Shown one piece after another: positions 12,824-33,886 of a DNA stretch of 62,493 nucleotides. Source of the DNA: a virus. Taxonomy: Duplodnaviria; Caudoviricetes. Under the pieces are notes generated by a model. The model did no database searches, was not told the origin of the DNA, and saw only the letters and a program-made list of their open reading frames with translations. The stretch is from IMG/VR virus record IMGVR_UViG_3300044527_000635, positions 1 to 62,493 of that record; one strand, written 5' to 3'. Position 1 is the stretch's first letter; each line of letters starts with the position of its first letter. The position numbers and the translations under genes are program-made.

Positions 12824-13522
12824 ATGAAACATTATATTATATATTTTATTAACGGTAGTTATAAAATTATTCAGTCTTCAATTAATTTAGTAGAAGACAC
12901 AGATCATCTCTATTTTTTAGGAATAGATTATCACTTGGTTGATTATATCGTCCAATTAAATAAAAATATTACCGACAACGATTTAAAACATAGGAAAATC
13001 CTTCCAGACGGCAATTCAATTTGGAACAAGCATGATTTGATTAATGAAAAAATTCAAAGAATGACAGAAGAGAGAAGTTCTTTATTGCAAAAACTTGATG
13101 TAGAATTTATGATTTCTCTTGAAATTGCTAACAATAAACAGACAGAGATTATTAAAAGAAATAAAAATTTCTTAAGACAACTCTCTTGCAGAACAGAAAT
13201 GCATCATATTCATGACTGCGAGAAAATTAATAAGTTTAACGCTTTCCATAATATAGTAGACATAGAAATCATTGACCCCGGTTACGGATGCTCAGAGTCT
13301 GTCCCTCATGTCACCATCTCTCGTCCTGAAGAGACTGACTATAACTATGGATTAGCAGCGGCTGCTAACGCTATTAGAGGATCAAAAGGAGAGCTACTTT
13401 CTTTATCTATGGCAAAATTAGGATGCGGCTACATATCTGAGCCTACAATTGAAATCAGTGGATATGAAGGAGAAAACGCAAAACATCCTGTGTTAAAAGC
13501 TGTTATTTGTAATATAATATAA
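12824..13522 (+). CDS. Tail fibre assembly (Tfa-like) protein with C-terminal beta-repeat
   Basis: 'ERSSLLQKLDVEFMISLE...KNFLRQL' resembles phage tail-assembly chaperones. The C-terminal 'IIDPGYG...LGCGYISEPTIEISG' is a structural beta-repeat. Confidence 0.5.
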   Translation: MKHYIIYFINGSYKIIQSSINLVEDTDHLYFLGIDYHLVDYIVQLNKNITDNDLKHRKILPDGNSIWNKHDLINEKIQRMTEERSSLLQKLDVEFMISLEIANNKQTEIIKRNKNFLRQLSCRTEMHHIHDCEKINKFNAFHNIVDIEIIDPGYGCSESVPHVTISRPEETDYNYGLAAAANAIRGSKGELLSLSMAKLGCGYISEPTIEISGYEGENAKHPVLKAVICNII

Positions 13523-13524
13523 AT

Positions 13525-14352
13525 ATGACAGACGTATTGTTTTCTTCCGGCGACGAATTTGCGTACTCTAATAATTTAGCAAATTGGTCTTCAATTAATT
13601 CAGGCCAAGAGATCGAAATAATTGGAAGCCCAGAGAAGTTCTCTACTGTTCGTGTTGATTTTATTAGCTACAATAAAGTATTTTCTGTTGTTTCTGAATC
13701 AAGAATTAAATTTGACTCTAATGCAAAAGATTTAATACTAGACGGAGATACAATTGATTGTTTTTTTAAGACTTATTATGTCGCTGTCATTAATGATGTT
13801 ATTGAAAAAGGCAATGGATATCAAGTCAACGAAGTAGTTAGTGTATCTAAGGATTGTTATTTTGATAATTTTTTAGACAAGAAAGAAAAAGCATTATTTA
13901 AAATTACTTCTGTAAATGCTGAAGGCGGCATTTTAGAACTAGATCTAATTAGTAAAGGCAAATTTTGCCAAAACTTTAGCGAAGCGGAGATAGAAAGCAG
14001 TTCTGGGAAAGGAGCTAAGATCTCTTTTATCTTGGGTGAAAATAAAAACAAAGAGCTTAAATTCTTTTCTGTATTAGATGTTAAACACCAAGATTCATAT
14101 ATTACCGCAGATCTAAATGAAAAGATTAAAAATCCTTTTCTCTGCGGCGAAATGCATATAAAAAGATATCGTATTACTTTAAATAAATCGCTAGGTAAAG
14201 AATATCTTTCTCACCCTTTTATTTTAAAAGTACAAAACACTCCTTTCTTAAACTTGCCGCTAGCCAAAGATAACAATATAGAGCAAATCTATAATCAGGC
14301 TATACTGACTATAGACTCTAAGATTAAAGAATTATCTACTGGAGTAAAGTAA
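13525..14352 (+). CDS. Hypothetical tail/baseplate-associated protein
   Basis: 275-aa ORF at the end of the tip operon with 'VIEKGNGYQVNE' and 'FKITSVNAEGGI' beta-repeats. It overlaps the tape measure stop convergently. Confidence 0.5.
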   Translation: MTDVLFSSGDEFAYSNNLANWSSINSGQEIEIIGSPEKFSTVRVDFISYNKVFSVVSESRIKFDSNAKDLILDGDTIDCFFKTYYVAVINDVIEKGNGYQVNEVVSVSKDCYFDNFLDKKEKALFKITSVNAEGGILELDLISKGKFCQNFSEAEIESSSGKGAKISFILGENKNKELKFFSVLDVKHQDSYITADLNEKIKNPFLCGEMHIKRYRITLNKSLGKEYLSHPFILKVQNTPFLNLPLAKDNNIEQIYNQAILTIDSKIKELSTGVK

Positions 14353-17300
14353 TCCTCCGGGTCTCTTTTGTTCGACTAATACTTCAACAACTTTGCTTCT
14401 AAGTAACTCAGCAAGTTTGCCATTGTTTTGCATGCTGTTCTGATCGTTTTTAGAATTGGATGCGCCTTTTTGAGTGGTGGAGTTAGCTTCAGAGGTAACT
14501 TCGCCGCCTTGAGACATGTTGATTGAAATATTGTTTACTACAGACATGCCAGACTCTTGAGCAGTTCCAGCAAGAGAAGCTCTTCCTGATTCTGATTGAG
14601 TTATTCCCGAATCCTTAGATAAGTTATCATTTAAAGTATTCAACGCAGTTACTAATTCATCCATGCTAGAAGACTGGTCTGTATTGCTTTGACCGCTATA
14701 ACTTGTGCCAACCATCCCGCCGCTAGCATATTTAGGAAGAGAACCAGAATTCAATTGACCCATGAAGTCTTTGCCGTACATATCGACGGCTTTTTTATTC
14801 ATGACGTATTCGCCGCCCATTAACAAAGCGGGAATATTGTCTTGGCCTGTAGAGCCGCCGCCAGCAAATTTGGCAATATAACCTCCTCCTGCTCTAAGAT
14901 TTTTTGCATATTGTTCATTTAATTGCGATTGACTTAAATTGCCTCCCGGTTCTAAACCTCTTCCCGCAGAAGTAGAAGCTCTACCCCTTAAACTCTCTGC
15001 TCCCATTGTAAGTCCAGCAGCGCCTATTTGGACAGCAGCAGCAGTTAATCCTGAATAGAAAGTGCTATTTACTTGATTTTTATAGTTTTTAAGGCTCTGT
15101 TTCTTGTCTCTCTCATATTGCGCTCGGTCTTGTAAGTACTGATCAAGTTTTTCATAACGATCTTGTCTTAATTTATTTTGAGGGTTATTGTCGTCAGTTA
15201 GAGCCATTGCTGACAATCTAGAATCAACAGCAAACTCTCCAGAAGTTGGGCGATCAGGATTATCGTACAAGAATTCATTTTGCAATGGGCCAACAGAGAA
15301 TCCTCCAGTCGCGTATCTTGGAATAATTCCACCATTTAGATTTCTTAAATAATCAGATCCATATTTATCAACAGAAGATTTCTTAATGACATACTCGCCG
15401 CCGCTCATCATCGCGGGCACATCGTCTTTCATCCCAGAGCCGCCAGTAACCATACCTCCAGAATTATAGCCTTTAATTGGTCCTCCATCTTTCCTGCCAG
15501 TTGTAGCAGCTTTACCAAAAGCAAACAAAGCATCAACGCCCATCTCTAGAGACTTATCAAGCATTCTATTTAAGATGCCTTGGAACATGTCTCTAAATGC
15601 ATCCTTAAGGGTTTTAGTGCCTTTAATAGCTTCGCCAAATGCGCTGCCAATACCAGACTTAAAATCAGTTTGAAATGTATCAATTAGTTGACCAGTGTCT
15701 TTTGCGAAGTCTGCTCTATTGTAAGTGGTGTTCTTCTCTGTGATTCCTCCTACATCGACTTTCCCAAGTCTAGCATTGTCTTCTATTTGGGAATTCATTC
15801 TGGCGGCTTTTTCTTCTTTGAAGAATGTGTCGCCGTAAGCTGAACCGTAAAGCCTCTTTGTTTCTTCTTTTGTTTTATTTAAACGCTCAGTTACTTTTGC
15901 TCTCTCATCTGCTATTTGCATTTCCAAGTACATTTGAGCGGCTAATTCTTTATTACCATCTCCATAAATTTTATTAATTTCTTCTATCTTTTTATTTTTT
16001 TCGATTTGAATACCCTCTTGAGCTTTAGCTAAATCTCGCTCTGCATCTATTAAAGATTGAGGTTTTGCTGGAATTGACGAAGAAGTTTTCCCAACTGAAG
16101 GATTGAATTCATAAAATTTAAAATCTGAAGAAGCGGCAGGAGTATTAATTTTATTAGGAAAATTAGAAGTTGGCGTTGATTGCGATTGATAAAGCTTTGT
16201 TAAAATAGAATTTAAATTCTCAAGTGGGACATTTAATTTTAAAGCCAGCTTTTCTCTATCTGTATATGCAATTGGATTATAAGGACCTGCATCACCCCCC
16301 ATTGGCATGCCTGATGCACTAGGATTAGCACTTCCAAAAAGCATACCAGAATTAGCCATCTGAGATCTTATCTCTGTCAAAGCTTTTTCTCTTTCAGAAA
16401 CTGAAGCTATTGGTAATAGATTTCTAATTTCTTTATTTAATTCTGCTGTATTTTGAGTATCAACAAGTTGCTTTAATGCTTCGCTCAAAGATCTATTTAA
16501 TTCAGTTATTTTTGATCCTACTTCAGCCTTAGAAATATCATAAAAAGCTTTAGTTATATCAGGAGCTTGTTTTGCTAGGATTTCTGTTTGAGTCTTCGCT
16601 AGCTCATTCGCATATTTACTTTCTTGAGCTAATAAATCGAAATAAGTTCCTATATTATCAAGCTTCAATTGAGAAGTCACTTGATCAATAGCAACGCTCA
16701 TTGCGTTTTCATTGAAGTTATCAAAAGCTTTCTCCAACGCACCGCCTGATTGAATTCCGCTTCCTGTTTGCCCTATCAATGAAATATTAGTTAAAGCTCT
16801 TGCTCTTTCGTTTTCTTTTTTAAGCTGTTCTGCTCTTGCGGTTATTGAAGCATTTTGTAATGGAGCTAATTCTGCTCCGACTCCTCCGCCTCTAATCCCA
16901 TACTGATTAGAAATCGTATCCAGCAATTTAAACAATCCAGATCCTGTTTCTGTTGGATTTCCTACTCTAACATTTTGTCCCAAAGTAGAAGTCAATTCAG
17001 TTAGCTTATCAAATAAATCAGAAACCCCAACTTGACCAGTTGATCCCAAAGCTGCGGCACCGCCAGCAAGAGAAAGCTTTTCAGATAGAGCTACGCTTCT
17101 TCTTTGATAATCAGAGTTTACTTTTTGAATAGCTAAATCAAATTTTCCTTGTTCAGTAATTTTAGTTAACTCGTTTAAAACTCCTTCAAAAGTATTTTGT
17201 AATTCTCCTGCAATTAATTCGGCTTCTGGCTTCTTGAAAAGACCCGTTGCAGAGACTCCTTGAATTAATTTGTTTTTTACTACTTCTATATTGCCACCAG

Positions 17301-20300
17301 CGCTTAACTCTTTCAAAGAAGAAGCGATTAGAGGAGAAATACCTTGGATATTTTTATTAAAAACGTTTAGTTCTTTTGTGATATCCTCTGGAGACTTTGA
17401 CAAATCTGTTACTGCTGGAAGAGCTTTTGATCTTATGTCTTCAGCTTTTTTAGTAATAATATCAGTGAAAGAAGACAATCCTTTATCTAAAGCGCCTCTT
17501 ACTTCAGAGTTTTGTTTATTTTGAAGATCTGTTAAAGCTAGGCTTGATTCTGCGGCGGTTTTACCTGCTTCAGTCATGAAAGGGGAAGCTAAACTCAAAG
17601 CACCTTTTGTCCTTGCTGAAGCTAATTGTACAGAGCCTTCTGCTTGTATTTTGTTTAGCTCTCTAAGAGTAGTAGCTCTATTTTTTTCTGCCTCAATTTG
17701 AGAAGAGAGAGAAAGATTTAGATTTTCATATCTTTGAGTTAAATCCTTTAGGATATCTGCATTCTTTTTAGTTATTTCAATATTTTGTTTTTGAATAGCT
17801 ACAAGGTTGTCCGCAGCTTCTTTAGAAGAAAAAACACCTTTACCAAATTCATCGATTGCATCAAAAAGAGATTTGACATTTTCTACGCTAATATTTTTAG
17901 AAACTTCTTCAAATTTAGCAGCAAGTTCTGGTCCAAAAATACCCTTAGATTCTAATTGCGATCTAATTTGTTTCAAACCTAATTGATCGACATTAGTTCT
18001 CTCGACAAATTTAGGAGCAGACGAACCTACAAAATTAGGATTAGCTCCATATTCAAGAATTTTATCAGTTTTTATTGATTGACCTTTTAAATTACTAATA
18101 AAAGAACCAAATTCTCCTGCGCCACCTTTAAATCCAGAAAGCACTTTTTGAGGATCTATTGATTGAGTAAATAATCTATTTAATTGATCTGAGTCAGCTT
18201 TTTTTAAATTGCTTCCTGCAATAATTCCTGTTTTATCATTAACTAATTTAGTAATAGCCAATTGCCTTTCTAAACTTTGTTGAGCATCGGACATTTCTTT
18301 ATTTACTCTAGCAATAGCATCAGCTACTTTACCAATATCAGTTCCTGCGGCTAATACCTTTCCTCTAAACTCATTAGGAATAGAAGCAAGAGAATCAGTT
18401 ATACTTGTTTGAAATTTTAATAAGGCTTGAGGCTGAGTTTTTGGATCATTTAAAGCATTTTGTAAGCTCTCTAATGAGGTTGCATAAGTTTGTGATGCGC
18501 CAGAGAACTTTGAAGAAGATTCCTTAACTTTATCTAAATTGGTAGAGATGTCAAAGATGGCTTGTTCTGCTTTTGAATCTACTATCTTTTTGGCGGCTAT
18601 CCCTACTCCGATTAGTGCGCCAGCAGCAGCGCCAACTGGACCAAATGCAGCACCTAAACCAGCATATTGAGCGACATCCGCAGCGCCCGAAAATGCGGCT
18701 TTCGTTTTTTTATCGGACTCAGGGACAAATTGTTCTGCAATATTTAATGCCCCAGCCGCTGCTAAACCTGCACCAGTTCCAGAAGACCTAATTAAATTAT
18801 TAAGTTTACCACCTTCTTTTAAGCTTAAAGGTAAATTAGTATAACTTGCTGTGGCTATTTTGTATTCTTGACTGCTTTGTTGTTTAGCAGACGCTCTTGC
18901 TATTGCTTTTTGCTCTTCTACTTTTGCTTTAATTGACTCAAACTCTTCTTTTTGTTTTTTGTTAACCATCTGGCCACCAGATGTTCTAAGTGGTCCTGTA
19001 ACATTTAAATCTTTATCAATATTAGAGAAACTAAATTTTGATTTAGCTTCTGTTTTTAGTTTTTTAACAGCATTGCCAGCTTCAGAGATCTCACTTCTTT
19101 TACTCTTTATTAAATTTTGGGTTTGAGTATTAATTTCTTTGAAGCCGCCAGCTAAAGATTTTAATTGACTTCCAAAAGCGATAAAAGCTACAGTAATCAT
19201 TGAAAGATCAAACTCATCTGCAAAATTAGGAATAAAACCTTCGGCCATCCCTTTGGTTTGAGGATTGATCCCCGCTTTCTTTGCTAGAGAAATTCCATTT
19301 CCTAGACTTCCTTCGGTTGTGTTGTAAACGCCAAGACCGTTTGGATTAAATGATGTTTTTAATTGACTATTTTGACCCAGTTTAACTTGAGAAGAGGAAT
19401 ATCCAGCAGACATCTCTCTTGCTACTGCTTCTTGAATTGGATTAAAATTAGGAATAAAGCCAAAAGCTTTTTTGCCACCGGGAGCAATTCTTTTAACAAT
19501 ATTAGTAACTTTTTCTCCAGAAGCTTTTAGTTTAGAAGCTTCGGCTGCGATATCTATTGAACCAGCTTTCGCTCTTTCCTCATCTTCAAATATTTTGATA
19601 TAGCCGCCAAATTCTCTTTCAATTTTTTTTGCAAAACTTGCTTCGCTATCATCATCATATCTAAGTTTATAGTCACCTAAATTACTTATAAATCCGGGAA
19701 ATAGTTGACGCACCTTATTAATATTAGTGCCTCCTCTAACGTCAAAATCACCTCCGCCTTTGCCTTCTCTAGAATAATCTTTTGAGAGGTTAACTCCAGC
19801 TTCAAATATTTTTCCTGCAAACTGCGCTGCTGGATTTTGTACAGCACCAAGATATTTTTTTCTTGATTGCTCGGTAGCCTTTTCTCCTCCGGGTAATCCG
19901 TCCGCAAAGTCAGTTAATAATTGATTAGCAAAAGAATCAGATTTTGCTCTTAGATCTACTTTATTACTTTCTAAAGCCTCTTTACTAAGGTTAACAACTT
20001 TAAAAGATATTGGAACATTTCCAGCCCCTCTACTCCTCTGGATTGTTTGACCAGACATTTGTGGACTTTCTAAAGTAAGCATCTCTGCTTGAGCCATATA
20101 TGGAGGCAATTGAGCGGCCTGTCTTTCTACTTCTCTTTCTAAAGCAGCTTGTTTTGGTAACCATGTTGGATTTTTAGAAATTCTTCTAATTTCTTCAATA
20201 GGTACTCCGCTGTCAGAGGCTCCATTTAAAGTAGCATTAGTCCATTTACCACCAAGAGTACCATCTGCATTTAAGAAAGCAGTTTTATATTGACCTCTCT

Positions 20301-22233
20301 TTTGACCAGCAGTAAGCCACTCTTCAACCGTAGGAGCGAAATTAGGCACATAACCCTTAGCCATATAAGGATTAACTCCCGTCTGATTCATTGAGCGAGA
20401 AGCTAATGAAGAAGCAGCTTTAGAACCTGCTGGAGGAAGTATAAATGGTTGACTAAAACCGGGAACATATTTTACTGTTTCAGCAGTATTCATTACTCCC
20501 CCAACAGAAGCAGGAGCATTAATTACATTACCAGCAACATATCCACCTTTAGCAGCAGAGGAAACTTCTGCTACCCTATCCTGCATAGGAATATACCCAC
20601 CGGCTTTTCCTTTAGTAACTCTTCCTTTTGTATCGGCTCCTATTCCTTGCTGCATTAAACTCTTAGCTAAAACAAGAGAAGATTTATCCATTCCCTGTAA
20701 CAAAGCAGACTGGTCTAATAAATTTTTTGTAACTTCTTTTTCTACATTGAGACGAGCCGTAGCTGACAAAGTCATTTGCTGCATTAAAGTAGGTTGCTTC
20801 GTAAGTATAGCTGAAATACCTTCTTGCAGCACTCCTTGTTGTTGAGATATAGTATTTAAACCTAAAAAACTTGAGCCAGCATCTTTTGCGAATTTACTAA
20901 ACGTAACGAAAAGCTTGCCCAAACCAATTATCCCTATCGCCACGCCGGGGCCAGTAATAAAATTAGTTATACCGCTTATAATGCCAGTTCCAATTTTCGC
21001 TCCAACGCTTTCGGAATCTTTATCATTTACAGAAGAAAGTTGGTCATTAATAAAGCCTAAAACTTTTCTAATTCCCGGAGCAACGCTTACAGAACCTACT
21101 TTAGCAGCAAACTGAGTTGCATTGGCAGTAGTTTCACTAAGCAAAGCAGATAAACTTTCGTTTAGGGCTTTATTTTTTACGATAGCTTCATCAACTGCTC
21201 TTGAAGATGCATTTGTAGCCCCAGCGAAAACAGAGTTTTCTTTAGAAAGGTCAGCTAAAGAGGCTTTTAAAATGTTAATCTGATAAACGCCACCAACTAA
21301 TTCAGCAACTTGAGATTTAACTACTGGGCTTAAGTTTTGGAAAGATTGAGAAAGGTTTTCCAATACTTTTATTGCTGGTAATGCATTCCCAGAAAGATCA
21401 GTAACTGTCACTCCAAAGTCTCTTAGGTCATTAATTACTTGAGGTCTTTCTATTCTTGTAAAAATAGTCTTTAAGGCGTTACCGATAACAGCACCACCAC
21501 GGGCAGTAGTTTGCTGAACAGAAGTTACGATACCTAGTAGTTCATCAAAGCTCACGCCAGCTTCACTGGCTGAAGAACCTACACACTGAATAGCTTCAGA
21601 AAGATCTCTTGAACTTACAGCAAATCTAGCATCAACCGCAGCCAGTTTATTAACAACTTCAGTAGTGGTAAGAGCTTCTTTTGTAAATGAGTTTACGGCA
21701 GAAGTCAGAGCCTCTGTACTAGATACTACATCGAGACCAGACAAGCGAGTAAGCACAAGAGCATCTCTTGTTCTTCTTAAGGTCTCCTCTAACCCCAAAC
21801 CTTGTCTTGAAAACTCTGTCGCCGCAGCAGCTACATCTTTAAAAGAAGAGCCAGTTTGTTTTGCGACATTAAATAATTGATCTCCAAATTGCCTAATTCC
21901 AGAAGAAGATGTATTTAATACAATATTAATATCAGTGAGTGATTTTTCTACTTCAATAGTAGAGCTTACTAATGCACTAAAAGCTTTCTGTACATTGTAA
22001 ATAACGCCAGCAGAAGCTCCGAAGGCGATAACACGGGCATTAGAAGCCTCTAAAGATTTTTGAAATTCATTAGCTTGACCAGTGATTTTGCCAAGCGGCT
22101 GACTAAAGTTCTTAGTATTTAAAGTAAGAGAGCTTTTACTTTGAATACGATTCAACGCTGCCAAAACATCTTTTTCAAGCTGGGCAGAGCCAAACGTCGC
22201 CGAAATGGGAATATTACCTGCTGATGTAGCCAT
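14332..22233 (-). CDS. Tape measure protein (TP901-family core)
   Basis: 2633 aa, Ala/Ser/Lys-rich helical sequence. Core 'FSRQGL...ALVLTRLSGLD...TARGGAVIGNALKTIFTRI', two C-terminal 'D(D/N)(V/I)PA..GGEYV.KK..V' repeats, and position downstream of the tube and chaperone genes. Confidence 0.93.
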   Translation of the reverse strand: MATSAGNIPISATFGSAQLEKDVLAALNRIQSKSSLTLNTKNFSQPLGKITGQANEFQKSLEASNARVIAFGASAGVIYNVQKAFSALVSSTIEVEKSLTDINIVLNTSSSGIRQFGDQLFNVAKQTGSSFKDVAAAATEFSRQGLGLEETLRRTRDALVLTRLSGLDVVSSTEALTSAVNSFTKEALTTTEVVNKLAAVDARFAVSSRDLSEAIQCVGSSASEAGVSFDELLGIVTSVQQTTARGGAVIGNALKTIFTRIERPQVINDLRDFGVTVTDLSGNALPAIKVLENLSQSFQNLSPVVKSQVAELVGGVYQINILKASLADLSKENSVFAGATNASSRAVDEAIVKNKALNESLSALLSETTANATQFAAKVGSVSVAPGIRKVLGFINDQLSSVNDKDSESVGAKIGTGIISGITNFITGPGVAIGIIGLGKLFVTFSKFAKDAGSSFLGLNTISQQQGVLQEGISAILTKQPTLMQQMTLSATARLNVEKEVTKNLLDQSALLQGMDKSSLVLAKSLMQQGIGADTKGRVTKGKAGGYIPMQDRVAEVSSAAKGGYVAGNVINAPASVGGVMNTAETVKYVPGFSQPFILPPAGSKAASSLASRSMNQTGVNPYMAKGYVPNFAPTVEEWLTAGQKRGQYKTAFLNADGTLGGKWTNATLNGASDSGVPIEEIRRISKNPTWLPKQAALEREVERQAAQLPPYMAQAEMLTLESPQMSGQTIQRSRGAGNVPISFKVVNLSKEALESNKVDLRAKSDSFANQLLTDFADGLPGGEKATEQSRKKYLGAVQNPAAQFAGKIFEAGVNLSKDYSREGKGGGDFDVRGGTNINKVRQLFPGFISNLGDYKLRYDDDSEASFAKKIEREFGGYIKIFEDEERAKAGSIDIAAEASKLKASGEKVTNIVKRIAPGGKKAFGFIPNFNPIQEAVAREMSAGYSSSQVKLGQNSQLKTSFNPNGLGVYNTTEGSLGNGISLAKKAGINPQTKGMAEGFIPNFADEFDLSMITVAFIAFGSQLKSLAGGFKEINTQTQNLIKSKRSEISEAGNAVKKLKTEAKSKFSFSNIDKDLNVTGPLRTSGGQMVNKKQKEEFESIKAKVEEQKAIARASAKQQSSQEYKIATASYTNLPLSLKEGGKLNNLIRSSGTGAGLAAAGALNIAEQFVPESDKKTKAAFSGAADVAQYAGLGAAFGPVGAAAGALIGVGIAAKKIVDSKAEQAIFDISTNLDKVKESSSKFSGASQTYATSLESLQNALNDPKTQPQALLKFQTSITDSLASIPNEFRGKVLAAGTDIGKVADAIARVNKEMSDAQQSLERQLAITKLVNDKTGIIAGSNLKKADSDQLNRLFTQSIDPQKVLSGFKGGAGEFGSFISNLKGQSIKTDKILEYGANPNFVGSSAPKFVERTNVDQLGLKQIRSQLESKGIFGPELAAKFEEVSKNISVENVKSLFDAIDEFGKGVFSSKEAADNLVAIQKQNIEITKKNADILKDLTQRYENLNLSLSSQIEAEKNRATTLRELNKIQAEGSVQLASARTKGALSLASPFMTEAGKTAAESSLALTDLQNKQNSEVRGALDKGLSSFTDIITKKAEDIRSKALPAVTDLSKSPEDITKELNVFNKNIQGISPLIASSLKELSAGGNIEVVKNKLIQGVSATGLFKKPEAELIAGELQNTFEGVLNELTKITEQGKFDLAIQKVNSDYQRRSVALSEKLSLAGGAAALGSTGQVGVSDLFDKLTELTSTLGQNVRVGNPTETGSGLFKLLDTISNQYGIRGGGVGAELAPLQNASITARAEQLKKENERARALTNISLIGQTGSGIQSGGALEKAFDNFNENAMSVAIDQVTSQLKLDNIGTYFDLLAQESKYANELAKTQTEILAKQAPDITKAFYDISKAEVGSKITELNRSLSEALKQLVDTQNTAELNKEIRNLLPIASVSEREKALTEIRSQMANSGMLFGSANPSASGMPMGGDAGPYNPIAYTDREKLALKLNVPLENLNSILTKLYQSQSTPTSNFPNKINTPAASSDFKFYEFNPSVGKTSSSIPAKPQSLIDAERDLAKAQEGIQIEKNKKIEEINKIYGDGNKELAAQMYLEMQIADERAKVTERLNKTKEETKRLYGSAYGDTFFKEEKAARMNSQIEDNARLGKVDVGGITEKNTTYNRADFAKDTGQLIDTFQTDFKSGIGSAFGEAIKGTKTLKDAFRDMFQGILNRMLDKSLEMGVDALFAFGKAATTGRKDGGPIKGYNSGGMVTGGSGMKDDVPAMMSGGEYVIKKSSVDKYGSDYLRNLNGGIIPRYATGGFSVGPLQNEFLYDNPDRPTSGEFAVDSRLSAMALTDDNNPQNKLRQDRYEKLDQYLQDRAQYERDKKQSLKNYKNQVNSTFYSGLTAAAVQIGAAGLTMGAESLRGRASTSAGRGLEPGGNLSQSQLNEQYAKNLRAGGGYIAKFAGGGSTGQDNIPALLMGGEYVMNKKAVDMYGKDFMGQLNSGSLPKYASGGMVGTSYSGQSNTDQSSSMDELVTALNTLNDNLSKDSGITQSESGRASLAGTAQESGMSVVNNISINMSQGGEVTSEANSTTQKGASNSKNDQNSMQNNGKLAELLRSKVVEVLVEQKRPGGLLYSSR

Positions 22234-22247
22234 ATGTCCTTAAACCT

Positions 22248-22261
22248 AAGAATAATTACAC
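22248..22261 (-). promoter_or_regulatory. GTGTAA promoter-like motif before the tape measure gene
   Basis: Minus strand reads GTGTAATTATTCTTAGGTTTAAGGACATATG. Confidence 0.55.
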
Positions 22262-23278
22262 TTAAACGCCGTGCAACTTCATTAAATCTTCAAAGCTTAA
22301 TGAGCCACCTTTTTTCTTTGCTGCATCTTCTAGAGAAACGCTTCCAGTGTTGTCTTGCTTTAACTTCTTTAAGTCTTCCTTGGTGGCTCCCATGACAGAA
22401 ACAGCTTGTACAGCAGTCTCTTTCCCGTTAGTCATGTTCTTGTCTTCGTGTAATTTTTCAAGATTGCTACTAGACTCATACCAGTCTATAATCTTGTCTA
22501 CATCATCATTATACTCATCAGGGTGTTTGATTGTAGATTTGCTCATCAAATCTTTGAAGTACCTTGCATAACCAAATAGCTCGACTTGATAAAAAGTCAG
22601 ATGAGTAATTGGTCTGCCATAAAAGAAGTAAGGATTATCCTCACACAAGTAGAAATAATTAAGGAAAAAACTGCTAACCCCAATTCTCTTTAAATTGTGG
22701 TGGCTAAATTTTCTTGCGCTTTCAGAATAATGAGAAACGAAATTAAACAACTCATATTGATCTAATTCTTCAAATTCTTCCAATGTAAAAGCATGGGTTT
22801 TGCAATCTTCATCAGAATAAACTGAGTAATAAATATAAAACTCATTCATTCTTTTGCCGCTGTATGTTTCGCAAGTATTTTCTAGAAGGTTATTTTTCTT
22901 ATTTTCAAGATCATTTATTTCTTGAGTTAATTCCTTCATTTGTATGTCTATATTGTCAAGGTCTCTACTTAGATACAACTTGCGGCGTGTTTTAACTAAA
23001 TTCGCAAGAGTCATTTTATTGTTTAGAATCTTTTGATCATCTTTTTTGCTATAAGAGCCTTCTTTAATTAGTTCTTCTATTTTTTGTTCGTTTGTGGGGA
23101 TGCCTTGAGATTTTGCTTTATTGTAATAGTGATTTTCGCGCAATTCAATAACTCCAGCATCTTTTGGAGACATGTGCTTTATAAAGTAATTTTTTTTATT
23201 TACTTCAAATGCAGAAGATCCATTTACTATTTCCCAGTAAAGAGATTTTAGATTTTTATTGAATGCTTGTAAGTCCAT
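22262..23278 (-). CDS. Tail assembly chaperone, GT-like (paralog of the upstream gene plus a C-terminal extension)
   Basis: Lies immediately before the tape measure, shares motifs with 23331..24071, and has a 'FYGRPITHLTFYQVELF' T-like segment. Confidence 0.55.
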   Translation of the reverse strand: MDLQAFNKNLKSLYWEIVNGSSAFEVNKKNYFIKHMSPKDAGVIELRENHYYNKAKSQGIPTNEQKIEELIKEGSYSKKDDQKILNNKMTLANLVKTRRKLYLSRDLDNIDIQMKELTQEINDLENKKNNLLENTCETYSGKRMNEFYIYYSVYSDEDCKTHAFTLEEFEELDQYELFNFVSHYSESARKFSHHNLKRIGVSSFFLNYFYLCEDNPYFFYGRPITHLTFYQVELFGYARYFKDLMSKSTIKHPDEYNDDVDKIIDWYESSSNLEKLHEDKNMTNGKETAVQAVSVMGATKEDLKKLKQDNTGSVSLEDAAKKKGGSLSFEDLMKLHGV

Positions 23279-23283
23279 ATACT

Positions 23284-23310
23284 AAAAAGCCCCCGCTCGC
23301 GCAGGGGCTA
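23284..23310 (-). terminator. Intrinsic terminator between the two chaperone genes
   Basis: AGCCCCTGC-GCGA-GCGGGGGCT followed by TTTT (GNRA loop). Confidence 0.8.
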
Positions 23311-23330
23311 GGATTAATTAATGCAAGAAA

Positions 23331-24071
23331 TTAGTTTATTTTTTGATCTTCTCTTAGAGCGTCAAAATCTTCTTTTGAATTTGCTCTACCAACATACCAG
23401 AAGCTAATAAGGTAAATAAACGCATTAGCGGTTTTTACTAAATGAGGATCTTCTGATTCAAAAATTTCGTCATACTTGTTCATTCGGGCTTCATAATCTC
23501 CTTCACCAAAAAATGGCTGTTTTTCCCCGTTTTTTTCATAGTATGACAAAAGTAATATCCACCAAGTAATTACTTTATTACGAGCCCTCGTTTCTGCTGT
23601 ATTATCAAAAAGAGATTCTTTTTGGACCTCTAATTCTGTTAGAGAGTTTTTAATTACAGTGATTTTCGACTCTAGTTCATTTTTCTTGGTTTCAAAATAA
23701 TCTGGGCGATCTTTCTCTGGTAGAGCTTCTAGTCTCTGTAGCTCGCCTTGAGAGTCATACAAGTCTTTGTACGCATCTGCTTCTGCATTCTTGCCCTTGT
23801 TGCCTAGGATTCCTCCATCATCAATATATCTCTTATTGAGAAGAGTGCGAGTTAGTAAACCTGCTTTTACGCCTTCAGAAAGTTTAACTCCATAAAACAA
23901 CTCGGCTTCATCAAACAAAGCTCTAGTAGGTTTCTTAATAAAATACTTATGAGGCACTGGCTTCACTACGTCTTTAGTGACAGTTACTTTTTGTCCTTCT
24001 TCGTTTACTGATTCCTCTGTCTCTTTTACAATTCCTTCTTTACTGATTGTAAATTCGTAGATTGTCTTCAT
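23331..24071 (-). CDS. Tail assembly chaperone, G-like
   Basis: 246-aa charged helical protein between the tube gene and the tape measure; assigned by synteny. Confidence 0.55.
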   Translation of the reverse strand: MKTIYEFTISKEGIVKETEESVNEEGQKVTVTKDVVKPVPHKYFIKKPTRALFDEAELFYGVKLSEGVKAGLLTRTLLNKRYIDDGGILGNKGKNAEADAYKDLYDSQGELQRLEALPEKDRPDYFETKKNELESKITVIKNSLTELEVQKESLFDNTAETRARNKVITWWILLLSYYEKNGEKQPFFGEGDYEARMNKYDEIFESEDPHLVKTANAFIYLISFWYVGRANSKEDFDALREDQKIN

Positions 24072-24289
24072 TATAAATTTATATTATTTAGATCTTCTTC
24101 AAAATTTCTGATGCTATCGTTGCCGCTGTCTAGTATTTTCTTTCTTAGACGTTGGTACTTTTCATCATTAATATTATAACCATCTTCCTTTAAATCTTCA
24201 AGTAAGATTAAGAAGTTTTTATATAAATTTACGACTTGTCGCCTATTCTTAAATAGGACATATTCTTTTAGCTTAATATCTATTGCCAT
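24071..24289 (-). CDS. Hypothetical protein
   Basis: 72 aa, TAATG-coupled to the downstream gene, with its own GTGTAA motif and AAGG leader. Confidence 0.7.
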   Translation of the reverse strand: MAIDIKLKEYVLFKNRRQVVNLYKNFLILLEDLKEDGYNINDEKYQRLRKKILDSGNDSIRNFEEDLNNINL

Positions 24290-24313
24290 ATAACCTTTGA
24301 AAAACCTTTACCT

Positions 24314-24327
24314 AATGGTATTTACAC
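24314..24327 (-). promoter_or_regulatory. GTGTAA promoter-like motif
   Basis: GTGTAAATACCATTAGGTAAAGG just downstream of a terminator. Confidence 0.5.
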
Positions 24328-24333
24328 TCTGTA

Positions 24334-24368
24334 AAAATAAAAAAGCCCCAGTTTTTAGGCTGGGGCTT
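24334..24368 (-). terminator. Intrinsic terminator after the major tail protein
   Basis: AAGCCCCAG-CCTAAAAA-CTGGGGCTT followed by TTTTATTTTT. Confidence 0.85.
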
Positions 24369-24387
24369 AGTGCGATTATTTTAAATA

Positions 24388-25569
24388 TTATACAAGAGGC
24401 AATGTTTCAAACATGAACATTCCTCTATCGGTTTGTTGAGGAGAACCAACTTGAGTAGTGAAGTTTAGTGTTACTGATTTATTAGCGCCAATTGAAGAAG
24501 ATATCTCTTGAGAATCTAGGCTCAATCTCTTGAGGACATATCCAACGCCTTCATTAGTAGCCAAATTATTGTTAGCATTAGCGGGAGCGCCCAAGATGAC
24601 GACAGCGTCATAAGTAGCATCATTATTTATTACATCAACAAGATTTCCAGTGGTAAGATCTTGAACTAGAGCATTCACGCTGAAAGAAATAGTAACTGGG
24701 AAATCAATTTCTCTAGAGAAAGCGTATTTACTACCGAGTTTTTGTAATGGAGTTCTATTTAAACCCATTGAGATAGAGAAATTTTGGATAGCAGCAGCAG
24801 TAGTGACATCTGTACCACCATAAGCTTGTCCGGCTGTCTTTGTTAGCGTAAGAGTAATATCTCCATGTCTCAATGCTGAAATTTTACCTAATGTATTTTC
24901 ACCATTAGGATTTGTAGCAGCCTGTGGCAGACAAAAGACTCCACCAGCGACTGCTCCAGCACTAGTTACACCGGGAGCGTTTCCTGAATTTCCAGCAGTA
25001 AAGTTCATATTCAAGCATTCAACGGTAGAAGAAACAGTTGGGAAATCTCCTACAGCAGCATTTATGCTATAATTAGTCAAGAAACCATTTCCTAAACCAA
25101 TTGTATTTCCTTTAGTGATATTTTCAGTAGCGTCGGGTGCAAATGTAGAAGCGTCATTGCCTTCAGTAACAGTTCTAACATAGTAATTTTTAGTGTTTAC
25201 AGTTCCACTAGTTAAGATTCCAGATAAGCAAGACTGAACAGCATTGGCAGAAGTAATGCCAGCGGTAGTAGTTTGATCTGTTATAATAGAAAAGCCTAAA
25301 TTCTTTTCATTAGCCATATCTGAAAGTAGATATGAAAAATCTAGACCAACAACTGGTTGCTCTACGATAATACGATCAATAGCAGCAAGATTGCCGAATT
25401 GATTAACATCTTTTCTCGCAATATTAAAATTATAATTACAAGATTGAACGCGAGAAAACTGGTTTATATATAAAGCTCCAGTTTGTGATGGTGTAGAAGC
25501 TGATACATCAATAAGATCATTTGTATTGAATAACGCTTCTGATTGGTAAATTACACGATTTCTTGGCAT
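24388..25569 (-). CDS. Major tail tube protein (two tandem tube subdomains)
   Basis: 393 aa between the tail terminator and chaperones, with its own upstream motif (ATGTAATAATAA, about 25594-25605) and a downstream terminator, as expected for a highly expressed gene. The strand pattern is internally repeated. Confidence 0.75.
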   Translation of the reverse strand: MPRNRVIYQSEALFNTNDLIDVSASTPSQTGALYINQFSRVQSCNYNFNIARKDVNQFGNLAAIDRIIVEQPVVGLDFSYLLSDMANEKNLGFSIITDQTTTAGITSANAVQSCLSGILTSGTVNTKNYYVRTVTEGNDASTFAPDATENITKGNTIGLGNGFLTNYSINAAVGDFPTVSSTVECLNMNFTAGNSGNAPGVTSAGAVAGGVFCLPQAATNPNGENTLGKISALRHGDITLTLTKTAGQAYGGTDVTTAAAIQNFSISMGLNRTPLQKLGSKYAFSREIDFPVTISFSVNALVQDLTTGNLVDVINNDATYDAVVILGAPANANNNLATNEGVGYVLKRLSLDSQEISSSIGANKSVTLNFTTQVGSPQQTDRGMFMFETLPLV

Positions 25570-25629
25570 ATTTTTAATCCTTTAAAATTCTGTTTATTAT
25601 TACATTTTTTATTCAGTTTTGAGAAATAA

Positions 25630-27291
25630 TTAAATTACATCAGGTATCTGCATCCAATAATCTCCATGCATTAAAATACCCTTAGTTGTGTCTTGAGGAG
25701 AACTCATTTGCCCTCCAAAAGTTAAAGTTGCTGTTTTATTCGCTCCGATTGACGAGCTAAAACTCATAGATTCTAATAGTGTAGATTTGGCCGTGTATCT
25801 AGCTCCTGTGATTCTTCCTAATGAAGAATTTTCTGTTCCGGGCTTAATGTGAGAAATTGACACATCGAAAGAAACATCTTTACCAGTAACCATAGTTAGT
25901 AGATTTCCAACAACAAGATCAGAAACCAAAACATCTACAGAAAGAGAATAATTAATTGGGAAAGTTATTTCTTTGGAAAATTCAAAAGTATTTCCTAATT
26001 TCTTTAGCGAATCTCTTTGCATGGCAATTGATAAGCTGTAGCTTTGAGCATTTAAAGAAGCTGAAGACGTATCGATACCAAAACCAGAAAGAGCATATTG
26101 ACTTAAATCAAGAACAATGCTTCCGGGTTTAAATACTGAAACATTGTTAGTCAAATCACTCGTATCATTAAAATCGGGTAAAGAGAATGTTCCATTTACT
26201 CTAGATCCATTAGAATCTAATGAAGGCAATTGATAACGTTGCCCAGCCGCAGAAGATTTAAAATTATTAGCTCCTGTGTGAAAAGAAATATTCCTAGCTT
26301 CATTGCCAACAGTAACAGTAGGGAAGTCTCCGACAGCGCCATTTGTAGCGTAATTATTCATTACAACATTTCCAAATGCAATAATCGCTTGATCTAATGT
26401 GCCAGTCGTAGCTACTGTTACGTCGTTTCCTTGAGCGACTGTCCTAACGAACATGTTTTTATCGTCAGTAACTTTCGTTAAGATCCCAGATAGGCAAGTA
26501 ACGTTGATAACGCTAGTCGTTCCTTCTGGATAGTTATTTACTAAAGTTGGAGAGAAAGCGTTGCCATTACTCGTGCCGCCAATTCCAACGTTAACTGGAA
26601 CATTAGCAATAGAAATTGTACTCGCGATTTGACTATTATTTATCCAAATCTCTCCTGATCCTCGGTTAGTTATTGAGACCCCTGTCGCTTGACCAGCAAA
26701 TAGGCCTCCCGTTGCGACACCAAAAGAAAGCACTGGAGCTACATTGGGCGCTGATTGAGGTAAAGTTAATATAAATGGATTTAAATATCCTTGACCGCCA
26801 TCGACAATAGAAGCCGCAGTTATTCCAAATTCATTATCTCCAGAAGCAACGATAGTTAAATTCACAGTAGCGCTTCTCTTGAGCGCCTGAACATTAAATC
26901 CCAATTCCTTTTCATTAGCGAAGCTATTTTGAAAGTAAGAAAAATCCAACGAAACAGTAGGCTGATCAATTATAACTCTATCAATTGCGGCCAAAGCGCC
27001 AAACTGATTTACGTCTTTCCTTGTAATATTAAAATTATAATTAATACTTTGAATACGATCTAAATTAGTAATATTTGCGGCCAAGCCGCCAGTCATTTGT
27101 GCCAAAGAAGCACTTGCCGTAGTGTTGCCTGAATTTACTGTTCGCACAGAAAGAGGGTCTAATTGACTCAATTTTTGAGTTGGGACATTTGGAGCATTAT
27201 CGCCCGTAACGAATTTATAGTGTCCACTTGTAGCTGGGCTAGGGCCAACATATAAAGCTTCATTTTGGTAAATTACTCTTGTTCTTGGCAT
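25630..27291 (-). CDS. Tail tube paralog with inserted beta-rich domain
   Basis: 'MPRTRVIYQNEAL', 'RIQSINYNFNITRKDVNQFGALAAIDR' and 'SSSIGANK' are nearly identical to 24388..25569; extra segment of roughly 110-120 aa ('IVDGGQGY...ITNRGSG'). Confidence 0.75.
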   Translation of the reverse strand: MPRTRVIYQNEALYVGPSPATSGHYKFVTGDNAPNVPTQKLSQLDPLSVRTVNSGNTTASASLAQMTGGLAANITNLDRIQSINYNFNITRKDVNQFGALAAIDRVIIDQPTVSLDFSYFQNSFANEKELGFNVQALKRSATVNLTIVASGDNEFGITAASIVDGGQGYLNPFILTLPQSAPNVAPVLSFGVATGGLFAGQATGVSITNRGSGEIWINNSQIASTISIANVPVNVGIGGTSNGNAFSPTLVNNYPEGTTSVINVTCLSGILTKVTDDKNMFVRTVAQGNDVTVATTGTLDQAIIAFGNVVMNNYATNGAVGDFPTVTVGNEARNISFHTGANNFKSSAAGQRYQLPSLDSNGSRVNGTFSLPDFNDTSDLTNNVSVFKPGSIVLDLSQYALSGFGIDTSSASLNAQSYSLSIAMQRDSLKKLGNTFEFSKEITFPINYSLSVDVLVSDLVVGNLLTMVTGKDVSFDVSISHIKPGTENSSLGRITGARYTAKSTLLESMSFSSSIGANKTATLTFGGQMSSPQDTTKGILMHGDYWMQIPDVI

Positions 27292-30084: not shown

Positions 30085-30107
30085 AAAAAAAGCCCCTTTC
30101 GGGGCTT
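30085..30107 (-). terminator. Intrinsic terminator
   Basis: AAGCCCC-GAAA-GGGGCTT followed by TTTTT. Confidence 0.9.
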
Positions 30108-30127: not shown

Positions 30128-30955
30128 TTATGGCATAATTCCAGTAGGCATTGGCTCAGGAGGAAGTGGAGGAGTAGGCTCAGTAACGGTTACAATGGCG
30201 AAATCACTTTGAACAGATCCAGCGGCATTGCTAGCAGCTACGAAATAGCTTCCAGAATCAGAGAACTTGACATCCGCAATCATCAAAGAGCTTCCGCTTG
30301 CTCCAATAATAGTCTCATTATCTTTACTCCATTGGAGAGTTAATGGCTGATCGCCCATAACTCCTACATTTAAAACACCAAATCCGCTAACGGTCAAATT
30401 AAGATTTTGTGGTTGAGATGTAATGGTTGGAGCTTGAAAGAAATTTAATGATGCATAAGAACTGATAATAGAACTCACTGGATTATTAATTTGTACATTG
30501 TAAGAGCCTAGATCGCCAGTCCCGGCTGAATTAATGGAATAAACTGGAGAGGTAGCTCCTTCGATAGCGGTTCCATTTTTACCCCATTGATAATTCAATG
30601 GAGAATCGCCACTTGCGACTACGGAGAATTGAGCAGGTTGCCCATCTATAACTTTTTGATCTACTGGTTGGGTAGTAATAAATGGAGCAATAGCTTCAGT
30701 ATAGCCTAAATTATCTAGCACTACTTTCTTTACATAATTATAGTCAGCTTCGGCAGTTTGCTCAGAGGGCCAATCCTGCCAATCATCGCCGTACATGCAA
30801 GTATAAGTCCTATCTAGGCTTAAATCTTGTGGGTTTTTAAGGACTACTGAAAATTTAATCCCATTATGTGGATCAAAGTCATTAAAGTCTACGTCCAATC
30901 TGGTGACATTCGCGCCAGATGGTTTTGGGTAAACGGGGATAAATATTGTATTCAT
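30128..30955 (-). CDS. Virion protein with two immunoglobulin (I-set-like) domains
   Basis: 'PFITTQP..Q....G..AQFSVVASGDSPLNYQW.KNG..I.GAT......DLGSYNV.I.N' occurs twice; Pro-rich tail. Confidence 0.85.
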   Translation of the reverse strand: MNTIFIPVYPKPSGANVTRLDVDFNDFDPHNGIKFSVVLKNPQDLSLDRTYTCMYGDDWQDWPSEQTAEADYNYVKKVVLDNLGYTEAIAPFITTQPVDQKVIDGQPAQFSVVASGDSPLNYQWGKNGTAIEGATSPVYSINSAGTGDLGSYNVQINNPVSSIISSYASLNFFQAPTITSQPQNLNLTVSGFGVLNVGVMGDQPLTLQWSKDNETIIGASGSSLMIADVKFSDSGSYFVAASNAAGSVQSDFAIVTVTEPTPPLPPEPMPTGIMP

Positions 30956-31002: not shown

Positions 31003-33093
31003 TTATAATCCGAATCTTCCTTTTGTAGCATTGTAATTTTGTAATACTTGAGCGGCAGATAATGCAATATTATAAACTCTTGTTTCTCCTATTCTTCCGT
31101 TGAATGGATAATTATTTCCCGCATTGCCATATTTTCCAATATATTGATTTGTTTGGCCTGTATTTAATGTTCCAGAAGCGTTCACACTCGCAACTTGAAC
31201 ACCATTAACATATATAATTTTTATACTTCCATTGTAAGTACAAATAACATGATTCCATACATTCGCAGTCAAATAAGTAGAAGAAGCGAAAGTCAAATCT
31301 TGATTATTTATTGTTCCGCCAAATGTTCTAAAATAAAATGCAGTAAGACTAAGAAACATGCTATATTGACTATTTACTGCTCCTTTTTCAAAAAGAAATC
31401 CTTCTTGACTTAAAGGACTAGGATAAAACCAACATTCCATTGTTATTGTTTGAGAATCATAAGCTGCGGAAGTAGATGATTCTAACCAACTATTACTACC
31501 ATTATAACTAAAATATTTTGGATCACTTGAATTATATGTTGCATTATTAATTGTCCAAGATAAAGCGGTTGGACTTACATCATAAAATGTTGTTCCAGCG
31601 CCGCCATAACTATATGGATTACCAGCATCAAGATTTAATACTAATCCTTGTTGTACAATTGTATTTGCAAATTTTGACTTTTGAGCTTCGTAATTTTGAG
31701 ATATTTCTGTTGCACTTAATGCTCTGCTATATATTAAAGTAGACCCCACATTAATTGGCGCATATCTTCCAGAAACAATATCATCTCTAGCAATTATTAA
31801 ATCTCCAAGCGTAGAACCTGAATACGATATCGGCGAAGTATTTGCATTTGTATTTGCTAATACTCCGTCTTTATAAATTCTTACATTAGAACCATCAAAA
31901 GTACCTACTAAATTAGTCCAAGTATTCAATGGCATTGTAGTAGTAGCGTCTACAACCGCAGCTAAACTGTTTCTTATTCTAAACCAAACTGTGTCTGTAT
32001 TATTTGTAGCCATTAATGCGTACGCATCTCTATCATTTCTTCTTAAAAAGTTGCATATGCTTGATTGATAAGCATTTCTTTTAAGCCACATTGAGACAGT
32101 AACGGTTGTAGGATTTAATACAAAATAATCTGCGACTGTCAAATAATCAGAAGAACCATCAAACTTAATCGCTCCTTTATTATAAACATCAAATAACGGC
32201 ATATCTGCCACCACTTGACTACCTACTGCCCCACCAAATGATCCATGATTATTATTGTTACTCAAATCAATTATACTTCTATCAGTATTAGATATACCCC
32301 ATTTTTGTCCAAGATATGTGTTTACTTGTTTTCTTTCTGTGACTGATAACCCACGATTAAAAATAATGACTTCACACTGAATGCCATTAAAATATCTACT
32401 AAAAGTGTCTGTATTTGATCCCCAAGAACCTATTAACCAACCTTTTGTATCTTCTGTCCATGTAGAACTTGGAGATGGTACAGGAGTTACAGAAGTACCA
32501 TTATATCCACCAGTTATAGTAGTAGAATCTTTAGTTATCCAATAACAATATGTTGTATTATTAGAGTATGCGGTTGACCCAATATTACCCGCAGGAGTAA
32601 ATCCTGTGTCTTGAAATCCCCAATAATATTGATCGGCAGTTCCATTTCTTTCTATTGAAAAACCAGCATATTGAGCATTTGCTCCTCCGTGATAATTATC
32701 TAAAATTTGTGAATACGCATTGGTTTCTCCGGCAGTTCTCCAAACTACAAAAACAGAACCTCCAGTTCTATTATTAATTATTGTGCTATTGTATCTTAAA
32801 TATTGACCAGACACAGCAGTAAATTGAATTGCTTTTCTACTATTTACAACTGCGCTTCTTGATGGTTGATTATTAACAGTGGCTTGAAAAAAATGCCTAT
32901 TATTTCCACTTTTATCTCTCCATTGGCTGACACTCGTTCCTGAACTATAACTAAAAGTTGTATCATCAGCAGCATCTAACCACAATGCCAATCCATTTTT
33001 TACAGGCAAATCAGTTGGATATGATTTATTATTTGATGCATCTAAACACATCACTAAAGAATCCGTAATAATTTTGGGGCTATACTGAAGCAC
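31003..33093 (-). CDS. LamG/ConA-like lectin protein, three domains (one nested)
   Basis: 'LVMCLDASN.KSYP', 'GLALWLDAAD', 'WTNLVGTFDG', 'WNHVICTYNG', 'YNIALSAAQVLQNYNATKGRFGL'; GTG start. Confidence 0.85.
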   Translation of the reverse strand: MLQYSPKIITDSLVMCLDASNNKSYPTDLPVKNGLALWLDAADDTTFSYSSGTSVSQWRDKSGNNRHFFQATVNNQPSRSAVVNSRKAIQFTAVSGQYLRYNSTIINNRTGGSVFVVWRTAGETNAYSQILDNYHGGANAQYAGFSIERNGTADQYYWGFQDTGFTPAGNIGSTAYSNNTTYCYWITKDSTTITGGYNGTSVTPVPSPSSTWTEDTKGWLIGSWGSNTDTFSRYFNGIQCEVIIFNRGLSVTERKQVNTYLGQKWGISNTDRSIIDLSNNNNHGSFGGAVGSQVVADMPLFDVYNKGAIKFDGSSDYLTVADYFVLNPTTVTVSMWLKRNAYQSSICNFLRRNDRDAYALMATNNTDTVWFRIRNSLAAVVDATTTMPLNTWTNLVGTFDGSNVRIYKDGVLANTNANTSPISYSGSTLGDLIIARDDIVSGRYAPINVGSTLIYSRALSATEISQNYEAQKSKFANTIVQQGLVLNLDAGNPYSYGGAGTTFYDVSPTALSWTINNATYNSSDPKYFSYNGSNSWLESSTSAAYDSQTITMECWFYPSPLSQEGFLFEKGAVNSQYSMFLSLTAFYFRTFGGTINNQDLTFASSTYLTANVWNHVICTYNGSIKIIYVNGVQVASVNASGTLNTGQTNQYIGKYGNAGNNYPFNGRIGETRVYNIALSAAQVLQNYNATKGRFGL

Positions 33094-33886
33094 TTTGTTC
33101 CTTTATATTGTTAAGATAAATGTTAAAATTTTCTTTGGTTGCGTCTTTTAGTTTGACTAGTTTATGATACTGCTTATGACAAGGATTGCATAATGTTATT
33201 AAATTATTGACTTCAAATCTATCGCCTGAAAAATGTTTCCATGAATTTAAATGATGAGCATGTATATTTTTATTAGAATCGCAAATAACACATTGGAATC
33301 TATCTCTTTCGAAACAAGACCTAGAGAGTCCTTTAAGGATGAATTTTTGATTTTTTCTTAATTTTCTTTCTTCTTCTGTTAAATTGTGATTCCAAGCATG
33401 ATGTTTCGGACCAACTCTTTCTTTCGATGATCTTCTAACGCCTTCAATTTTTCTTTCTCTTTGCAAGCATTTGCATGATCCTACATTTCCATTTTTTAAA
33501 TCTTTAGAAATAACATGATGTTTGTTTCCGCAATCACATTGGCACAACCAATACCATCTATCATTTTTTCTATAAGATTTTTCTAAAACAATTAGTCTAT
33601 TAAATCTTTGACCAATAATTGATTTATCGACTCTCTCTTCTCCTGAAATTCCTAATTTGCATTTATGACAATAACAATCATTCGACCTATTAAAAGCAGA
33701 ATAAGGAGTTTCTTTTATCACTCCACATTTATCACATTGATATTGGATTCTAGAAGCGCTATTTTTCTTTAACATTTCTACAGGCAAATTTATTTTGTCG
33801 CCGACGTTACAAACAACTCCTTTGGATCTATAATAATTTACAGTTCCACCTACAATTAAAATTGGTAATGTTTTTGTAATTAACAT
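33080..33886 (-). mobile_element. Free-standing HNH homing endonuclease gene
   Basis: Zn ribbons 'CDKCG...CHKC', the module 'IIGQRFNRLIV...WLCQCDCGN...SCKC', and C-terminal 'RDRFQCVIC...HAHHL...NNLITLCNPCHKQYH'. A non-structural gene inside a structural cluster. Confidence 0.88.

Follow-up and report, generated by a model that had tools for sequence, protein, structure and literature searches.

A diverged pair of paralogous genes in front of the tape measure gene in an uncultured freshwater phage: candidate tail assembly chaperones encoded without a frameshift

The stretch of DNA analyzed here (the window) is the 62,493-nucleotide (nt) virus record IMGVR_UViG_3300044527_000635 of an uncultured freshwater phage, which is estimated to be 38% complete and has a G+C content of approximately 0.32–0.42. 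Its tape measure gene (positions 14332..22233, minus strand, 2633 amino acids (aa)) was identified by 13 PHROG matches, 12 of which are tape-measure families (best expectation value (E) 1.8e-43). Directly upstream, and likewise on the minus strand, lie the two open reading frames (ORFs) that are the subject of this report, a short gene A (23331..24071, 246 aa) and a longer gene B (22262..23278, 338 aa). B consists of an A-like core at approximately residues 29–213 and approximately 110 extra C-terminal residues. The gap between A and B measures 52 nt and harbors a GNRA-loop hairpin with a tract of five uridines (23283..23309, minus strand; hairpin 23309..23288, tract 23287..23283), and a further 28 nt separate the end of B from the ATG of the tape measure gene. 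A is preceded on the same strand by S1 (24071..24289), a conserved ORF for a helical-looking protein of 72 aa, whose stop codon overlaps the start of A (TAATG), and S1 by an ORF of 393 aa (24388..25569, minus strand), a putative major tail protein gene by its position, which is kept in related loci. The order putative tail protein, S1, (S2), A, B, tape measure, in which S2 is a further small gene, was found in the window and in 80 related viral loci, with A and B placed after the putative major tail protein gene and ahead of that for the tape measure.

The original prediction held that the two genes before the tape measure gene are paralogs, and the comparison of their sequences supports this with good confidence. 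A and B share only approximately 17–20% identity, and pairwise BLASTP gave an E of 0.001. Metagenome searches at E <= 1e-3 yielded families of 576 proteins for A and 65 for B. Alignment of the two families with hhalign, which had been proposed as a check, gave an E of 1.4e-4 over 100 columns for alignments of 31 rows each. With deeper alignments (172 rows for A, 127 for B) the E was 1e-4 at a score of 38.7 and a probability of 57%, and the 175 aligned columns matched A41–229 to B29–213. The controls, two reversed and 20 column-shuffled profiles, reached a top score of 25.4. The peptide pairs on which the claim of paralogy had been based are present in the proteins and stand in register in this alignment (KYFIKK/NYFIKH, KAGLLT/SQGIPT and the LEVQKESLFDNTAETRARNK/LENKKNNLLENTCETYSGKR block). 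Reciprocal searches with hidden Markov models were made against a set of 1676 six-frame ORFs, drawn from the window and all related loci, which includes 84 A and 84 B ORFs. At E <= 1e-3 the B profile matched 39 of the A ORFs and the A profile nine of the B ORFs, and at E <= 0.01 neither profile matched anything in this set besides the opposite paralog.

AlphaFold2 models of A and B (predicted local distance difference test (pLDDT) 82.5 and 79.5, respectively) consist mainly of helices, among them a long helical hairpin, and their elements are arranged alike: first a beta hairpin, next helices of approximately 20, 10, 25, 30 and 17 residues, then a small beta hairpin and more helices. The short and the long product have their N-terminal part in common by paralogy rather than by identity, and the long one carries a C-terminal extension. 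This extension had been put at roughly 120–150 aa; it is present but slightly smaller, with a surplus over A of approximately 110 aa (B214–338 compared with A230–246). It contains a disordered stretch of low confidence (residues 275–316) and a conserved C-terminal peptide. An acidic motif, [STDNK]-x-[EQ]-[DE]-[FLMI]-x-x-[LMI], is located at residues 232–239 of A and at residues 165–172, 299–306 and 328–335 of B, where it covers the last two short helices. By raw counts it occurs once near the C-terminus in 149 of 171 A proteins and in one to four copies in 114 of 121 B proteins, and may represent a docking peptide common to A and B.

A programmed frameshift joining A and B is ruled out in the window because of the 52-nt gap and because a TAG closes the B frame upstream of its ATG. 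Reading of the frames confirmed the claim that stops block a fusion: the TAG is located two codons 5' of the B ATG, and the B frame is open for just one codon upstream of this start. Counts out of 64 given below refer to the non-redundant loci among the relatives. No conserved frameshift was found in these loci, and the frame of B relative to A is 0, +1 or -1 depending on the locus. Heptamers of the type X XXY YYZ that are in phase are few in the final 60 codons of A in these loci, and none of the -1 readings continues into B; they stop after 1–20 codons. A search for longer fused forms of A (432–2000 aa) found none, which is weak evidence.

The hairpin between A and B, predicted as a GNRA hairpin with a short T-tract ending 5 nt before the second ATG, is real. 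It is encoded on the coding strand within the intergenic gap and reads AGCCCCUGC-GCGA-GCGGGGGCU, followed by UUUUU, AGUAU and the AUG of B. Its stem comprises nine pairs, seven of them G-C, and ends 10 nt before this start, the U-tract ending 5 nt before it. The hairpin was the top terminator-like site in a scan of 17 kb, and with a folding energy of -22.1 kcal/mol (z -3.19) it was not equaled by any of 200 shuffled sequences. Conservation in relatives had been suggested as a check, and the structure is retained in all eight non-redundant members of the window's clade (22 sequences with duplicates), with loops of GCGA, GAAA or GAGA and one compensatory change of a stem pair from G-C to A-T. 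Across the relatives as a whole, a hairpin is located at the A-B junction in 15 of the 64 loci, which fall into three separate parts of the A tree; two other clades harbor G+C hairpins of different sequence with T-tracts at the same junction. Mapped on this tree, the hairpin state requires four changes, of which at least two are forced by well-supported branches. Thus, of the proposal that gene duplication plus a terminator replaces the frameshift, the separate paralogs, the lack of a fusion and a hairpin conserved in the clade stand, but the terminator occurs in only 15 of 64 loci. The hairpin is one of several devices and not the general rule of the family.

A comparable structure follows the 393-aa gene (24333..24368, minus strand; hairpin 24368..24343). 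It has nine pairs, six of them G-C, and the tail TTTTTATTTTT. A hairpin with a T-tract was detected in the gap after the putative tail protein gene in all 58 loci with full flanks (including L005–L081), and the same scan found an equivalent hairpin after A in 12 of these 58. The stem sequences after the tail protein gene are very different from each other, which indicates strong conservation of the structure, and the occurrence of this hairpin in 58 of 58 loci argues for working terminators. From this pattern the hairpins are likely to function as such. Any terminator at the A-B junction would lower the tape measure transcript too, and not that of B alone. A third strong terminator-like hairpin was observed at 30090–30107 (minus strand), where AAGCCCCGAAAGGGGCTT and a T-tract are located 13 nt before the next ATG and 3' of a 275-aa Ig-like/Hoc-like gene (30955..30128), a layout that matches that of the hairpin before B. 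As to transcripts, 17 runs labelled as RNA contain parts of the stretch at low word shares. Contigs 88–99% alike to parts of the region 21800–25600 are present in freshwater, lake and river libraries with this label, which indicates that relatives of the phage occur in such samples. The four runs compared consist of assembled contigs, whose depth cannot rank genes, DNA carry-over is possible, and the pieces listed lie outside the hairpin, where a lack of cover carries no information.

The start codons of B differ between the loci. B starts at or beside the stop codon of A in the 44 of the 64 loci that have no A-B gap, and the start is GTG in 22 of these, TTG in 13 and ATG in nine. All 20 loci with a gap of at least 40 nt start B with ATG. 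Under a 'first start codon' rule, applied alike to B and to other genes, non-ATG starts were assigned to B in 35 of 64 cases compared with 27 cases among 360 other genes in these loci; by the same rule A has two in 64 and the tape measure gene none in 62. The junction survey lists ATG for A in all 64 loci. Where loci with a non-ATG start and candidate starts were read back, an ATG was either unlisted or located well inside B (34 codons in for L025), and the near-invariant residues G20, K34 and H35 lie before the internal ATG. Due to these near-invariant residues within the first 35 positions of B, the GTG and TTG starts are probably real. Purine-rich runs resembling Shine-Dalgarno sequences (AAAGGA, AAGGT) precede several of them, as judged by eye from the junction sequences. 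Scores for Shine-Dalgarno sequences in the window itself were set aside, because such sequences are used irregularly there and a false signal for B arises from the G-run of the hairpin. The recurring combination of gap, hairpin and weak start suggests that B is kept scarcer than A, in each lineage by a device of its own.

The small genes of the slot were analyzed as well. Every locus that extends far enough upstream contains a member of the S1 family, which follows the tail protein gene directly and is coupled to A in translation. S2 (74–95 aa) is located between S1 and A in 28 non-redundant relatives (for example L025:2722-2997), but not in the window's clade. Neither S1 nor S2 matched a Pfam or PHROG family, and hhalign comparisons of their profiles with those of A and B gave scores of just 10–16, which indicates that they are unrelated to the pair. 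In the window, S1 ends with AAATTTA TAA TG, in which AAATTTA (24072–24078, minus strand) is a canonical -1 slippery heptamer into the A frame. Most close relatives (L003–L015, L022) read AGATTTA at this site, the frame of S1 relative to A varies, and in most loci the A frame is open for only 0–13 codons upstream. A fusion of S1 to A by a -1 slip was therefore rejected, and the heptamer is probably present by chance, as it is not kept and the frame relation varies. A reading of S1 and S2 as a frameshifted G/T pair in distant relatives was rejected likewise, since S2 has its own ATG, the frame varies between +1 and -1 and neither protein is related to A or B.

In phage lambda, gpG and gpGT are a short and a long tail assembly chaperone, of which the long form is scarcer and is made by frameshifting. 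This frameshift is a textbook case of programmed recoding that fixes a protein ratio. Both chaperones have reportedly been treated by Levin (1993) and by Xu, Hendrix and Duda (2004). A and B resemble gpG and gpGT in their location directly 5' of the tape measure gene, in the common N-terminal part, in the extension of the long form and in the signs of a lower level of this form. They differ in that they are two genes and distant paralogs, without a slippery site or an overlapping frame, that they are about twice as large with no sequence or fold similarity detected, and that one or two more small genes share their slot. Partial intrinsic terminators follow abundant structural genes in the late operons of phages. 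The hairpin after A is similar to these, being a G+C-rich stem-loop that lies with its U-tract on the coding strand, in a short gap after a gene whose product is expected in excess, but it differs in its location inside the chaperone slot, between paralogs and 10 nt ahead of the start codon that follows.

Chaperone pairs of T4-like phages are said to have been described by Vladimirov, Gautam and Davidson (2022, Virology 566:9). According to the PRFect paper (PMC10885494, citing Vladimirov, Gautam and Davidson 2022), some T4-like phages make do without a frameshift by encoding a short chaperone in one gene and a longer, fused one in another. In PMC12846349 the same work is cited with regard to short and long isoforms, but also to poly-T frameshift signals of T4-like genes, so that the two paraphrases differ. 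As far as these accounts go, A corresponds to the separate short gene, and B to the separate longer gene, which is similar to the short one in its first part. The T4-like phages are myoviruses, in contrast to the long non-contractile tail that lambda-like tip genes indicate for the phage studied here. Microbacterium phages of cluster EA harbor a two-gene, frameshift-free chaperone pair too (Jacobs-Sera et al. 2020, PMC7302621). In the passage on this pair neither paralogy nor a device for the expression level is claimed, and the hosts and sequences are unrelated to the window. Thus a two-gene chaperone pair without a frameshift has already been described in other phages (T4-like phages; Microbacterium cluster EA). 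Nothing was found in the literature on a terminator or weak starts that set the ratio of such a pair, with Vladimirov et al. 2022 covered via citing papers only.

Long-tailed phages normally have their assembly chaperones encoded directly 5' of the tape measure gene, and such a role is therefore proposed for A and B. From this position and from the expression signals we infer that they are candidate chaperones and that A exceeds B. The proposal that they are duplicated, separately translated chaperones of the G/GT type, with B kept scarce by a hairpin or a weak start, has in our estimate even chances of being correct. One gene of the tail module would have been duplicated to give A and B, each translated on its own. 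A, short and abundant, would serve as the coat of the tape measure protein, which at 2633 aa is very long, and B would be the long, scarce form, whose extra C-terminal part would do the job of the T part in lambda gpGT and recruit the tail tube protein. In the window and its close relatives the hairpin after A would cut transcription into B and the tape measure gene. Due to its distance of 10 nt from the B ATG it would probably also hinder initiation on B. In lineages lacking the hairpin, a start of B at the stop codon of A combined with GTG or TTG would give less B than A. Transcription would thus step down after the tail protein gene and, in some clades, once more after A. The observation behind the original prediction is confirmed, and its interpretation is supported in part: paralogy, separate genes, the lack of a frameshift and the conserved hairpin stand; the functions of A and B as chaperones, their binding partners and the A:B level are what we infer.

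Several results weigh against this interpretation. No relevant Pfam or PHROG family was found for A and B at E <= 0.1, six distant relatives of A or B gave no Pfam or PHROG matches at E <= 0.01, and profile searches of the PDB with A and B gave nothing. Foldseek searches with the models of both proteins against PDB and BFVD returned nothing at E <= 0.001, and VIA-align against 48,161 chains matched only generic helical hairpins (best Z 9.6 and 9.4). Lambda gpG has approximately 140 aa, so that A with 246 aa and B with 338 aa are larger. The upstream 'major tail protein' is itself assigned from its position only, and the slot also contains S1, in 28 non-redundant cases together with S2, either of which could be the real chaperone. 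The hairpin is missing in 49 of the 64 loci, and nine loci lack both a gap and a weak start. Moreover, the states of start codon and hairpin cluster on the tree and their counts are thus not independent events. In the ESM Atlas, A and B returned only their own unnamed viral clusters. A complex prediction for the putative tail protein with B 225–338 ended with 'no answer' (score 0.00) and was run without controls; it counts neither way.

The main rival explanation, which we consider unlikely, is that the paralogs A and B have another job within the tail module, for instance as virion or assembly components of an unusually long tail, and that S1, together with S2 where present, is the real chaperone. 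The constant presence of S1 directly after the tail gene and its coupling to A would fit this, as would its size, which is closer to that of classic gpG-like chaperones, and the lack of a match of A and B to a chaperone family or fold. S1 and S2, however, likewise lack a match to a chaperone family and carry no frameshift signature, given the separate ATG of S2, the variable frame and the lack of conservation of AAATTTA in close relatives of the window. Furthermore, the mostly helical models of A and B with their long helical hairpin are unlike the tail structural proteins, which are rich in beta structure, and a short and a long paralog with signs of reduced B fit the logic of G and GT.

Quite improbable in our view is the explanation of the hairpin as a general attenuator of the operon or a stabilizer of mRNA 3' ends, which would keep the tape measure gene and downstream genes low or protect the upstream transcript, with an incidental effect on B. 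It is in line with the hairpins of this type that follow the tail protein gene (58 of 58 loci) and another gene (30107..30090), with a location that precedes the tape measure gene as well as B, and with the many loci that lack the structure. Yet in loci where the hairpin or the gap is missing it is B, and not the tape measure gene (0 of 62 non-ATG), that has weak starts, which points to selection on the level of B specifically, and the hairpin ends close to the B start. A further explanation would be that B is made as an A-B fusion through non-canonical recoding, by frameshift or read-through, in the lineages in which it abuts or overlaps A with a GTG or TTG 'start', and that the arrangement of the window is derived. 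In 16 distinct junction types the B frame overlaps the end of A, being open for just 1–40 nt before the A stop; several loci have B one codon past this stop and in frame 0, and non-ATG starts of B are unusually common. Nevertheless, this is by far the least credible of the alternatives: no in-phase slippery heptamer leads into B by a -1 reading, the frame relation of A and B varies among close lineages, Shine-Dalgarno-like runs precede several of the TTG and GTG starts, and, as weak evidence, A-containing proteins of 432–2000 aa were not found. To the window, with its gap and stops, such recoding is inapplicable.

The putative tail protein of 393 aa has a longer paralog of 553 aa (25630..27291, minus strand), likewise regarded as a putative major tail protein from its position only. 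The two genes are in tandem, and their products have near-identical N-termini and core motifs. Many distant relatives harbor a single such gene of 347–573 aa. Neither protein matched a Pfam or PHROG family, and a sequence search of the PDB with the 393-aa protein gave no matches. One of 31 members of the 393-aa family matches PHROG 365 'tail protein' (E 2.7e-4). The plus strand between 1565 and 12808 harbors lambda-like tail tip genes (PHROGs 14, 18, 30 and 32 and a J-like gene of 2441 aa), which make a long-tailed, non-contractile phage most likely. Together, positions 1565–14352 comprise M, L, two K-like paralogs, I, the J-like gene and two more ORFs. This block runs convergently towards the tape measure gene, whose 3' end it overlaps by 21 nt, unlike the usual co-linear tail module. 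In addition, two neighbouring giant ORFs of 1974 and 1852 aa (37421–48908, minus strand) are located in the structural region, and an HNH endonuclease-like gene (33080–33886, minus strand; PHROG 374, E 1.3e-20) is located among genes for virion structural proteins. No cultured phage with a match to A, B or the 393-aa protein was found among 50,697 phage records, and tblastn searches of these records with A and B gave no matches at E <= 0.01. The terminase shares only 24–25% identity with terminases of Microcystis and Bacillus phages, and a search for host or prophage context found only two metagenome-assembled contigs that carry a relative of A.

Taken further, a large uncultured aquatic lineage of long-tailed phages might meet the need for much of a short and little of a long chaperone without recoding, by a duplicated pair from an undescribed family in which the low level of the long form is ensured by interchangeable devices that take each other's place in the course of evolution, i.e. 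an attenuator hairpin that masks the start, a start at the upstream stop codon, or GTG and TTG. This broader proposal is tentative, and we hold it to be possible rather than probable. The gain would be moderate, because frameshift-free pairs have already been published and because the function is deduced here. If the proposal is true, it would add a structurally uncharacterised candidate family of chaperones and would spare annotators the hunt for a slippery site that does not exist. Frameshifting would then be only one among several equivalent solutions to the problem of stoichiometry, and the locus would offer a natural test bed in a widespread environmental lineage that fixes the ratio with swappable ordinary tools such as duplication, an attenuator or weak initiation.

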